A stretch of DNA of 64,000 bases from Sphaerobacteraceae bacterium (GCA_016781925.1 JADDPH010000077.1:878-64877); one strand, 5' to 3'. Positions 6,087 through 9,549 are shown, numbered from the stretch's first letter. Numbers and translations are program-made. The notes: generated by a model from the letters alone, not told the origin.

Positions 6087-6808
6087 GATGACGCGCTACC
6101 CCATGATCCTGTCATCAGCGCCAGCCGCTCGGTCTGCACCCCAAGGACGGTAACCGGGTAACCGAGCTTGGTCGCACCGTAGAGTGGGCTTGACTTCGAC
6201 GCCACAGCACTCAGCAGCGTCTTTAGGGCATCCTCGAATCAAGCCACTCCAGAATGCATCGCTCGAAACTGCTGCTGCCAGGTAAGGGAAACGGTCGATC
6301 CGACTGCCCGATCTTACCCTATGCATGGATCCTTTCAGAGGTTCTCCCCAGCGCTATTCAGATCGCGTCCTTGCCCCTGGCGCACCTGCGGTGAGGCCCG
6401 AAATTGGATCGGCTTGCACCAGGCAGCCGGGCGTGCGGTCCAAGGGCTGGCCCCTTGAGGAACGAACCGGGCGGCCTCCTTCGTCACCACCGCGCTGTCC
6501 GACAATCGGCAACGACGGCAACGCGTGGAGCAGGAAATGGCCCAACGGCTGCTCCGATTGGCTCGGAACACGATGGCGTTTGGCCTCCTGTTTGATCGCA
6601 GTGCCCCAGGGCGCGCCGGCACCGCCTCCATGATCTACTCCACATGAAGTGCGGGGCAGGGGCATCAACCTCAACGTCGATGCGGGTCACCGGGGTGCAG
6701 AGCGATCGCCTTGATCCCCAACCGCTCTTGACACGTCTGAAGCGCGCCGACCTGATCACCTACAGGCAGGGGTGACTACGAGGGCCGATGCGGGTTGAGA
6801 ACGGACGT

Positions 6809-8413
6809 CTATACGCCCTTCTTGTTGGTCGTGTGCGGACCGAACTGGTCCGCGGTGGGCTCTGCTCAGCAAAACCAGCTTTCGGTGAGGCGTGGCGGGG
6901 GGCGACGGCGGGTGGTCGGACGTGGAGGCCGAGTCGATACGAGTCCCGCCGCCGCATGGGCCGCCCGCCAGATCTTGCCGAACGTCGCCGTGGCCCGTTC
7001 CTGAGTCTCCGTCGCTTCCTCGACCAGGGCAGAGACGGCGGCGTGGAGCGCATCCATCCTCGGGTCCGGGTGGGCCCAGCGATAGGTGAACGCCTCGGCG
7101 TTGAGTTCGCCAAGCCAGGTCGCACTCGTTGGGTCGCCAAGCAAGGCCGATCCAGGTGGAACGAGAAGACGAATAGCGAGCATGACCGGATCGACGTGGG
7201 CCACGAGATCGCGCTCGGCGACGAAGCGCAGCAGGTCCAGGTAACCGTCAAGGGTTTCCCACGGGGTGAAGGGCAGCAAGGAGGGGCGCATCGGGATTCC
7301 GACCGCATCAAGAAGGTCCAACGCTTCGACCACCCCCGCCCGGCTGTGGCCCTTGTCCAGTTTCCGGAGTACCGCATCGCTCAGGGATTCGACGGCTGAG
7401 ACCACGAAAGCGCAGCCAAGTTCGGCTAGCTCCGGTAGCAGACGGCGGTGTTGCAGCAGATGCTCGATCTTGATCGTCACGTCGAAGGTGACGTCCGGAT
7501 GCTCGGCATGGAGCGCACGGCAGATGCGAAGGCCGTGGCCGGGACCATTGAAGAAGTCGGGATCGCCAAAGGTGAGGTGGCGAGCGCCAGCGGAGATTTG
7601 AGCCCGGGCGTCCGCGAGCACGGTATCCCGTGGGACCACCGTGAAGCGCCCCCCATAGATGGGGGTGATTGGACAGTGACGGCAGGTGTGGTGGCACCCG
7701 CGGGTCGCCTCGACGTACCCGGCCCGCACGATCGTTCCGGTCCGCTCCAGACCGGCGTAGGCGCGTAGCTGCGGCAAGCTGTCGCGCTCCGGGACCAGGA
7801 GGGCGGCAGGCTCCAGCACCGGTGGGGCTGGGCGGTCAACCGTGCCCAGGCCCTGAACCGTGGCAAGGTCGTTCCCTCGGTCCAGGGCAGCCGCGAGGTC
7901 CAGCAGCGGCCGCTCGTACTCGCCGCCGATCACGCTGTCGCCAACGCCGGTAACACCAAGCAGGTAGCTGGCGTTAAGCGTTGCGTAGAGTCCGTAGAAG
8001 CAGACGTGGGCATCGGGGTTCGTCGCCCGAACGCGAGCGGCGATTCGTGCTCCGAGCCGCAAGGCGGTGTGCATCGGCACCGAGATCGCCACCAACCGAG
8101 CGGCGCGGATCGTGGCATCCTCAAGTGACTCGACCGACGTGTCGACCGTGACGGGCGCGAAGCCGGCTTGGCGCAGCGACGCCAGCGGAGAGGCAAGGCT
8201 GAGCGGCTGATGCCCGAGTTCATAGCAGGAGATCAGCAGGATGGCGCCGGGGTCCGTGACGGCGCGAGGTGGGGCAACAGCGAGGGGAGTGCTGACCAAG
8301 GACATGCTCCTGGGAATAATCCCGGTCGGTCTCCCCGCCCGGGTAGGGTCAAACCTATAATCCAGGTCGGTGGCCCGGCGCAACGTCCTCACGGACTGAG
8401 CCACGACGGGCAC
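6809..8413 (-). CDS. B12-binding-domain/radical SAM selenoprotein with C-terminal Cys-Sec-Ala-Glu-Pro tail (TGA 6866-6868 = Sec)
   Basis: N-terminal ILLISCYELGHQPLSLASP (cobalamin-binding-like) and radical SAM CxxxCxxC = CHHTCRHC. The ORF track stops at TGA after ...LTESWFC, but the frame continues AEPTADQFGPHTTNKKGV to TAG at 6809-6811. A SECIS-like hairpin follows. The start is uncertain (GTG 8413, GTG 8404 or ATG 8305). Confidence 0.8.
6835..6853 (-). promoter_or_regulatory. SECIS-like recoding hairpin
   Basis: The mRNA forms GCGGACC-AGUUC-GGUCCGC, a perfect 7-bp stem. It starts 12 nt after the UGA, the loop starts 19 nt after the UGA, and G is at loop position 2. Confidence 0.6.
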
Positions 8414-8435: not shown

Positions 8436-8975
8436 GTGCGACCAGCCTACCTCACCGGTGACCGCATCTACCTGCGGCCCCTCCTGTCGGGAGATGCCGA
8501 GCAGGCCACGGCCTGGTTCGAGAGCCCCTTCCCTATCAACAGCACGCGTGCCGCCGCGTTTCTTTTGGAGGCGCATACCCAGGCGTGGGGGGAAGCGGAT
8601 CCATTGCACCTTGCCGTCGTGAGACTGGACGATGAGGTGATCGTCGGCAGCACCATGGTCAAGGGGCATTCCGGGCCCCACGGGAGGGTTCGAGTCCGCG
8701 CTGCGCCCTGGTTGTCTGCCGAGGAGGCCGAGGCGCTGCACGCCGAGACCCTCAGTCTGGTCGTCCCGTGGCTGCGGGACGAGTTGGAGTTGATGACCGT
8801 GACTGTCGATATCGCCGCCGACGAACCGGCCTCCCTCGCCGCGGCAACGGCGCTCGGCATGATCCTCGGCGTTCGCCTCCGGGAGCACCAGGTGCGACCG
8901 GGTGGCCGGGTCGACCTCCTCCAGTTCCAGGCCCTCAACCCGAACCGCCGCGTGCCGGAGGGTGGGGATGCGTAA
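8436..8975 (+). CDS. GNAT-family N-acetyltransferase (RimJ/RimL-like)
   Basis: 179 aa. GTG start 8 nt after AAGGAG. N-terminal DRIYLRPL and a RimL-like layout. Confidence 0.8.
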   Translation: MRPAYLTGDRIYLRPLLSGDAEQATAWFESPFPINSTRAAAFLLEAHTQAWGEADPLHLAVVRLDDEVIVGSTMVKGHSGPHGRVRVRAAPWLSAEEAEALHAETLSLVVPWLRDELELMTVTVDIAADEPASLAAATALGMILGVRLREHQVRPGGRVDLLQFQALNPNRRVPEGGDA

Positions 8976-9549
8976 TGCGCTCGTCGTTGGCGACCGCGTC
9001 TATTTGCGGCCACTGGAAACGAGCGATGCCGAGGGGTTGGCGCGAGACTTCTCCGAAGAGGCGGAGACGTTCATGTACCGCGGCCGGATCCCGGTCAGCC
9101 CGCTCGCGTTTGCCCATTGGATCGAAAAACAGCATACGAGCCACCCCCCGGCCGAGGTCAATCTCGCCGTCTGTCTGCGCGCTGGGGACGAGGCCGATCG
9201 GATGATCGGCCTCGTCAACGTCGACCACATCGACTGGCTGAATCGAACCAGCGAGACGGGCAGTATCCTCCTACCCGCTCGATTCCGGGGCCAGGGGTAC
9301 GGTACGGAAGCGAAGCACCTGCTGCTGGAGTACGCCTTCGATCGCCTCCACCTCCACGTGCTGCGCTCCCACGTCTGGGAGCCGAACGGCCGCTCCGCGG
9401 CAGCCTTGGTCAAGCAAGGCTATCGGCCGGCTGGCCGGCTCAAGTGGGACGATGTGAAGCACGGCATCTATCGGGACACCCTGGTTTTCGACGTGCTCCG
9501 GGAGGAGTGGCTCCAGGCCCGCGCCGCGTGGAAAGCCAGTCGGTTCTGA
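8968..9549 (+). CDS. GNAT-family N-acetyltransferase (paralog of the upstream gene)
   Basis: ATG 8968 overlaps the upstream stop (ATGCGTAA). DRVYLRPLETSDAEGL...FRGQGYGTEAKHLLLEYAFDRLHLHVLRSHVWEPNGRSAAALVKQGYR is the acetyl-CoA motif A. Confidence 0.85.
   Translation: MRNALVVGDRVYLRPLETSDAEGLARDFSEEAETFMYRGRIPVSPLAFAHWIEKQHTSHPPAEVNLAVCLRAGDEADRMIGLVNVDHIDWLNRTSETGSILLPARFRGQGYGTEAKHLLLEYAFDRLHLHVLRSHVWEPNGRSAAALVKQGYRPAGRLKWDDVKHGIYRDTLVFDVLREEWLQARAAWKASRF

Follow-up and report, generated by a model that had tools for sequence, protein, structure and literature searches.

The closest described relatives of the gene treated here are the radical S-adenosylmethionine (SAM) proteins of the NCBIfam family NF040546, named "CUAEP/CCAEP-tail radical SAM (seleno)protein", and ArsL, an enzyme of arsinothricin biosynthesis. 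The NF040546 family has been listed among the rare proteins with an adjacent cysteine-selenocysteine (Cys-Sec or CU) pair, with structure and function "not well known" (Haft 2022, bioRxiv 10.1101/2022.07.06.499078). Other selenoproteins with a CU motif, namely HgcA, the SAO-locus proteins and some MerT, are tied to metal or organometal chemistry, and it has been suggested that the CU dipeptide contacts the heavy-metal atom (Haft 2022, 10.1101/2022.07.06.499078). ArsL cleaves the C-gamma-S bond of SAM, which gives a 3-amino-3-carboxypropyl (ACP) radical. Its As(III) substrate is held by an RCCLKC tail, which is needed for product formation but dispensable for SAM cleavage; when there is no substrate, the ACP radical is quenched to 2-aminobutyrate, and tail-less ArsL has an unchanged iron and sulfide content. 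The DNA analysed here, a stretch of 64,000 nucleotides from a Sphaerobacteraceae bacterium (GCA_016781925.1, JADDPH010000077.1:878-64877; hereafter the window), carries on its minus strand a radical SAM gene with an apparent stop at TGA 6868-6866, and this TGA is almost certainly read as selenocysteine (Sec).

A first-pass annotation of the window had pointed out that the frame continues behind this TGA as Cys-Sec-Ala-Glu-Pro, and on re-translation its coordinates and sequences were all found to be correct. The minus-strand frame reads ...PPPRLTESWFC, the TGA, then AEPTADQFGPHTTNKKGV, and ends with TAG at 6811-6809; the codons across the site are TGG TTT TGC TGA GCA GAG CCC ACC GCG GAC CAG TTC GGT CCG, and the last ones before the stop are CAC ACG ACC AAC AAG AAG GGC GTA. 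From the ATG at 8305 the protein has 498 codons, with Cys479, Sec480 and a tail of 18 residues (481-498) that come after the pair. This ATG is most likely the start codon, as it agrees with the start and the length (477 residues) of a relative that is 89% identical; an in-frame GTG upstream at 8413, which is the start chosen by the ORF (open reading frame) caller, adds 36 residues that lie outside the family profile. The extended protein matches NF040546 with 715 bits (cutoff 500, E = 3.6e-215) at profile positions 1-467 of 468, and the match extends through the tail, so the family that the first-pass annotation had named does exist. As it had also stated, no function is known to have been assigned: according to NCBIfam and Haft 2022 the function of the family is unpublished, and the Haft preprint is the sole paper found that names the family. 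The finding is thus right, yet the family is already known. Also the expected truncation by annotation that is not aware of Sec is seen, since 114 of the 120 best database homologues end with ...WFC, among them entries that are named "(seleno)protein"; the other six are Cys forms (WFCCAEP) that read WFCCAEPTAEQF... at this place. In the GenBank entries P0035, P0041 and P0087 the family name has been assigned by the model and the coding sequence (CDS) still stops at the UGA (...WFC).

Homologues had been proposed as a check. One scan of species-representative genomes, with at least 590 hits and a best match that is 73% identical, supplied a set of 80 orthologous loci (L-numbers below are locus labels). 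These loci belong mostly to Thermomicrobiales, Ktedonobacteria and other Chloroflexota, with a few from Nitrospirota, Blastocatellia, Poribacteria and Latescibacterota. Directly after WFC, 66 loci have a TGA codon, 7 have TGC and 7 have TGT, AEP stands in frame after this codon in 80/80 loci (usually as AEPTxxQ[F/L]), and not one of the 80 stops at WFC with TAA or TAG. Within the Ala-Glu-Pro codons behind the TGA, positions 1 and 2 are invariant and position 3 varies, and because only third codon positions vary, it can be concluded from the alignment that the tail after the UGA is translated. Even members at 38-47% identity have WYC-TGA-[A/S]EPT and a hairpin with an AGKU loop. The 89%-identical relative has UGA, AEPTADQFGP and hairpin unchanged, whereas its sequence beyond the hairpin (the tail after GP) has diverged.

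Behind the UGA the RNA can form a perfect hairpin, the position of which (6835-6853), its start 12 nt and its apical loop 19 nt past the UGA and the G at loop position 2 had all been given before and are confirmed here; RNAfold recovers exactly this hairpin, with -12.8 kcal/mol for the hairpin alone, and the 81-nt region around the site has a folding z of -3.07. The rules for bacterial selenocysteine insertion sequence (SECIS) elements, as modelled by Zhang and Gladyshev and summarised in PMC13188914, are a loop of 3-9 nt, a stem of 4-16 bp, a G in the first two loop positions that is usually followed by G or U, a UGA-to-loop distance of 16-37 nt and an energy of at most -7.5 kcal/mol. With a 5-nt loop (AGUUC), a perfect 7-bp stem, 19 nt to the loop and the energy given above, the hairpin agrees with these published rules throughout, as the first-pass annotation had claimed. 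When the whole window was scanned for this pattern, no other site had a UGA and a hairpin behind a long ORF.

The evidence on this hairpin comes mainly from the orthologues, in which it turned out to be conserved, covarying and tied to the TGA. In an ungapped alignment of 64 TGA forms, 84% of the cells of the 7-bp stem are paired and 68 double-sided changes are found versus 24 +/- 4 in shuffles, and a shift of the 3' arm by one to three columns makes the pairing collapse. The alignment pair 27:35 is C-G in 28 sequences, U-A in 22 and G-C in 7. Its column 27 falls on the third position of an Asp or Gly codon, where the change is synonymous (e.g. Asp GAC to GAT), column 35 is a second codon position, and as the compensating change in the latter (GGU to GAU) replaces Gly by Asp, the RNA pairing is maintained at the expense of the amino acid. 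Of the inner five pairs, 94% are formed in TGA forms versus 57% in Cys forms; all five are formed in 54/64 versus 2/14, and the loop starts with AGUU in 60/64 versus 7/14. Judged from these alignments, the hairpin is selected as an RNA. The Cys forms L014 and L026 from Thermogemmatispora keep a SECIS-like hairpin with an AGUUC loop, and as they still carry it, a recent change from Sec to Cys is suggested for these two. In the Thermogemmatispora Cys forms (L014, L023, L026 and L057) the tails are also long and bear another pair of adjacent Cys close to their end (...CCGVGH or ...CCSVGH), and extra Cys pairs in the tail occur in other Cys forms too (database entries P0122, P0166 and P0204).

The minimum-free-energy fold contains, in addition, a possible second helix of 8 bp, in which the Trp-Phe-Cys codons pair with the Ala-Glu-Pro codons and the UGA becomes a three-base loop. 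GCA or GCG encodes the Ala that follows the UGA in 64/66 loci, versus 52% in the gene bodies of these loci (binomial p of about 4e-16, uncorrected for relatedness), and in the Cys forms it is so in 11/14. The remaining pairs of this helix are fixed by the codons and therefore uninformative either way.

Several observations weigh against a selenoprotein gene. Taken alone, the hairpin is not statistically unusual at this GC content, as 457 of 5000 random 34-nt windows of the same sequence (66% GC) fold at least as well (about 9%), and it is because of the comparison with other genomes that it is judged to be above chance. The covariance-model scan that had been proposed gave no support, in that no Rfam SECIS family matched around the site even at E <= 10, and at gathering thresholds Rfam gave nothing across the whole window. 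Bacterial SECIS elements, the type example of which is that of E. coli fdhF, are heterogeneous, and the missing Rfam match is therefore not surprising. Furthermore, no match to E. coli SelA, SelB or SelD was found by tblastn in the 64-kb window, and ARAGORN found no tRNA gene and thus no tRNA-Sec there. Among 60 related loci ARAGORN found no tRNA-Sec either, and the sole sel gene near any orthologue is in the Blastocatellia genome of L047. It encodes a SelD homologue with 39% identity to that of E. coli, lies at 7425-8348, upstream of the radical SAM gene by about 2 kb, and adjoins an ATP-grasp ligase. For a second selenoprotein gene in the window, a scan for UGA with a GUU-loop hairpin gave no credible candidate, and a scan for TGA read-through with a coding-like GC content of third codon positions (GC3) on both sides gave none. 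All things considered, it is very likely that this is a genuine NF040546 selenoprotein gene and that its UGA is decoded with the help of the downstream hairpin, which would act as a bacterial SECIS for SelB and Sec-tRNA(Sec). That Sec is actually inserted in this organism is what we infer. Also the explanation as a whole can be regarded as likely, with the chemistry considered below as its tentative part.

The product would be a 498-residue enzyme with a Rossmann-type N-terminus, a radical SAM core and, behind a linker rich in Pro and Arg, a flexible C-terminal tail ...LTESWF-C-U-AEPT.... The cysteines of the CxxxCxxC motif are invariant throughout the family and in ArsL. A structure prediction (AlphaFold) was made on a natural Cys-form homologue, and in this model the body has a predicted local distance difference test (pLDDT) score of 85.6, whereas the tail stays below 50 and is predicted to be disordered, which suggests a flexible tail; as the confidence is low there, the model is silent on where the tail docks. 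The closest folds to the model are AprD4 and then TsrM, MgmA and OxsB, and AprD4 is an example of an enzyme that has a B12-type domain yet no cobalamin. A sequence search of the PDB gave distant radical SAM enzymes only and no ArsL structure.

The second-best NCBIfam match is ArsL (NF040542), with 303.5 bits at profile positions 1-414 of 423. Also a search of 1.8 billion representative proteins, which recovered truncated forms and Cys forms of the family (WFCCAEP, WFCCAAP, WYC...), recovered at 35-36% identity ArsL-type sequences that end with FKRCC[L/I]KC, and in a joint alignment the CC of ArsL sits under the C-[C/U] pair. By sequence, the family is the sister of ArsL. If the analogy holds, the Cys-Sec pair probably serves to hold a soft atom of the substrate (metalloid, chalcogen or metal), which it would place above the active site. 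A SAM-derived radical could then attack the held atom to give an amino-acid-like product, and in many other lineages the adjacent L-amino-acid-ligase-type ATP-grasp enzyme might process this product further. That the pair presents such an atom to a SAM-derived radical is a tentative proposal, and the more specific version, in which an ArsL-type enzyme joins the 3-amino-3-carboxypropyl group of SAM to a non-arsenic (or additional) soft element and the resulting unknown organo-element amino acid is made into a peptide by the co-located ligase, has to be called unlikely as it stands. This chemistry has several points against it. The ArsL score is below the family cutoff of 450, and there would be two soft ligands, one of them selenium, versus three As(III)-binding cysteines in ArsL. 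No arsenic gene or methyltransferase recurs next to the gene; the annotated recurrent neighbour clusters of the 80 loci contain no methyltransferase, permease, arsM or arsQ, with ArsM not searched for directly. The window also lacks the ATP-grasp, YggX and formyltransferase genes that accompany the gene elsewhere (see below). The radical formed from SAM may be an ACP radical as in ArsL or the usual 5'-deoxyadenosyl radical.

The Cys-Sec pair might instead be a redox or hydrogen-atom-donating tail and not a substrate holder, which is possible but rather doubtful. The tail would then swing to the active site and either quench a radical intermediate or reduce it, and the selenenylsulfide that it forms would be reduced again externally, for which the GCUG tail of animal thioredoxin reductase and the C-terminal cysteines of ribonucleotide reductase are precedents. 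The likeness to thioredoxin reductase had been noticed in the first-pass annotation, and it stands as far as a vicinal Cys-Sec pair on a tail predicted to be disordered is concerned; beyond that it is an analogy only, as the sole characterised homologue, ArsL, uses the equivalent tail for binding its substrate As(III). Sec is typically found at redox sites (PMC13188914). A dedicated hydrogen-atom donor is chemically plausible, too, because the ACP radical of substrate-free ArsL is merely quenched to 2-aminobutyrate. On the other hand, the pair is trailed by the conserved AEPT and 9-25 residues, versus a single terminal Gly in thioredoxin reductase, and no thioredoxin or reductase gene is among the conserved neighbours.

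It is quite improbable that the Cys-Sec pair ligates an extra iron or iron-sulfur site. Such a site would account for the adjoining YggX and NifU genes, as a gene for a YggX-type protein of Fe(2+) trafficking and oxidative damage protection (PF04362, 124 bits; NCBIfam NF003817, 133 bits versus a cutoff of 74) lies directly upstream on the same strand in 54/77 loci, and NifU-type genes are found beside distant members and in L047, L063 and L070. Helper proteins of this kind, however, would be useful to any oxygen-exposed [4Fe-4S] enzyme in largely aerobic lineages, a disordered tail with two ligands is poorly suited to carry a cluster, and the iron and sulfide content of ArsL is the same without its tail. 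It is most improbable of all that the TGA is a true stop, with a protein that ends at ...WFC and a hairpin that is a leftover (e.g. after loss of the Sec machinery) or otherwise used, because, despite the lack of sel genes and tRNA-Sec in the window and the fact that hairpins can outlive their use as in L014 and L026, the TGA, the in-frame AEPT and the perfect 7-bp hairpin with its AGUU loop are intact and identical in the 89% relative in spite of a diverged flank, the same arrangement occurs with compensatory changes in 66 genomes, and there is no orthologue that ends at WFC with TAA or TAG.

Table 1. Positions of the features in the window and what each assignment is based on.
Feature	Position	Strand	Basis
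CUAEP-tail radical SAM selenoprotein CDS (Sec very likely)	6809..8305	minus	translation and NF040546 profile match
N-terminal Rossmann-type domain, B12-binding-like	7898..8236	minus	PF02310, 27.3 bits, under gathering score 32.1
Radical SAM core	7232..7711	minus	PF04055, 54 bits, E = 2.9e-14
CxxxCxxC motif CHHTCRHC (Cys204, 208, 211), [4Fe-4S] cluster ligands	7673..7696	minus	translation
Cys-Sec pair: TGC 6871-6869 and in-frame TGA 6868-6866	6866..6871	minus	orthologue codon column
Post-Sec tail AEPTADQFGPHTTNKKGV	6812..6865	minus	AEPT conserved as protein; ADQFGP overlaps hairpin; remainder variable
SECIS-type hairpin, 7-bp stem GCGGACC/GGUCCGC, apical loop AGUUC (6846-6842)	6835..6853	minus	fold and orthologue covariation
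Possible second helix GGUUUUGC/GCAGAGCC	6858..6876	minus	minimum-free-energy fold
Two divergently transcribed GNAT acetyltransferase genes	8436..9549 (8436-8975; ~8968-9549)	plus	PF13302

Recurrent neighbours of the gene were sought by clustering the ORFs of the 80 loci. The YggX-type gene occurs neither in the window nor in the Thermomicrobiales relatives closest to it; where it is present (L011-L079, e.g. L053 9591-9995), its product bears an additional Gly/Lys-rich C-terminal tail (...KGGGGAPRKK). A divergent formyltransferase-like gene is found in 36/69 loci, and an L-amino-acid-ligase-type ATP-grasp gene (PF13535 and PF18603) is adjacent in 18/80 loci of several phyla and also in distant members. 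Examples of the latter are L083 (1989-3260), L084 (6466-8013), L087 (1188-2486), L088 (4805-5986), L047, L073 and 16 others, and stop and start codons often overlap there. Distant members show a tight order of NifU (a divergent gene), ATP-grasp ligase, radical SAM gene and a gene of the Rv0495c family (PF11307).

In the window itself the two GNAT genes are neighbours only, and their arrangement is limited to the close relatives L003, L005, L007, L092 and L094. They were considered as resistance genes of the ArsN1/PAT type, but the first has no NCBIfam match and the second matches SpeG and AAC(6') models weakly, and since neither matches an ArsN1 or PAT model and the pairing is restricted to close relatives, they were rejected as evidence. 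The downstream M28 peptidase was likewise dismissed as a partner, as it adjoins the gene in no other locus. The roughly 700 bp at 6095-6808, which separate this peptidase gene from the stop codon of the radical SAM gene, contain no Pfam or Rfam match, no coding-like GC3 and no promoter or terminator pattern on the strand of the gene, the two hits of that scan being on the opposite strand near 8300 and 8550. A DUF3303 gene lies at most 550 bp behind the radical SAM gene in L092, the 89%-identical relative, but at 2647-2967 in the window, which is why the peptidase region looks like an insertion. The remaining annotated window consists of ordinary housekeeping genes.

The gene is a clear annotation case of a selenoprotein gene that is clipped by ORF callers. 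Because the entries end with the Cys that precedes the UGA, nearly all public sequences lack the portion that is likeliest to touch the substrate. The family is large and strongly conserved, with 473 clusters (50% identity) at E <= 1e-30 next to the hits in species-representative genomes mentioned above, and it is common in Ktedonobacteria and Thermomicrobia. Ktedonobacteria and Thermomicrobia, the main soil Chloroflexota hosts, are largely aerobic. Aerobic bacteria seldom keep selenoproteins according to a 2026 review of prokaryotic selenoproteomes (PMC13188914), and the text of that review mentions neither the family nor Thermomicrobia or Ktedonobacteria. The kinship with ArsL yields a testable hypothesis, namely that an ACP radical acts on an atom which the Cys-Sec pair holds. 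As natural Cys forms exist in cultured species, Thermogemmatispora among them, an experiment is practical for which no selenoprotein has to be expressed. If the more specific version given above is true, a pathway for an organo-element amino acid would be widespread in largely aerobic soil Chloroflexota, in which selenoproteins are regarded as rare.

Compared with other members of NF040546, the protein has the same full-length match, CxxxCxxC core and ...WFC-[U/C]-AEP tail, and apart from the YggX, formyltransferase and ATP-grasp neighbours, which are absent in this clade, it is one more orthologue. Like other bacterial SECIS elements, its hairpin is a stem-loop right downstream of the UGA and within the CDS, with a small loop that starts with G and then U; unlike these, it matches no Rfam family, it may be accompanied by the candidate extra helix that puts the UGA in a three-base loop, and its AGUU loop and closing C-G pair are near-invariant in this family. 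With HgcA, the SAO-locus proteins and some MerT the protein has the rare CU dipeptide in common, but there is no sequence relationship and the motif is placed differently. With the Gly-Cys-Sec-Gly of animal thioredoxin reductase it has in common that Cys and Sec are neighbours in a flexible extension of the C-terminus, but thioredoxin reductase is an unrelated flavoprotein in which the pair is penultimate, whereas here the host is a radical SAM protein and the pair is followed by AEPT and more. ArsL has its RCCLKC at the very end and no linker like the one that precedes the pair in this family, whereas here the RCCLKC motif is absent and a C-U-AEPT... tail follows a linker that is about 50 residues longer. 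The two share the N-terminal domain, the CxxxCxxC motif and an aligned vicinal thiol/selenol pair, and they are about 35% identical across the whole catalytic body.

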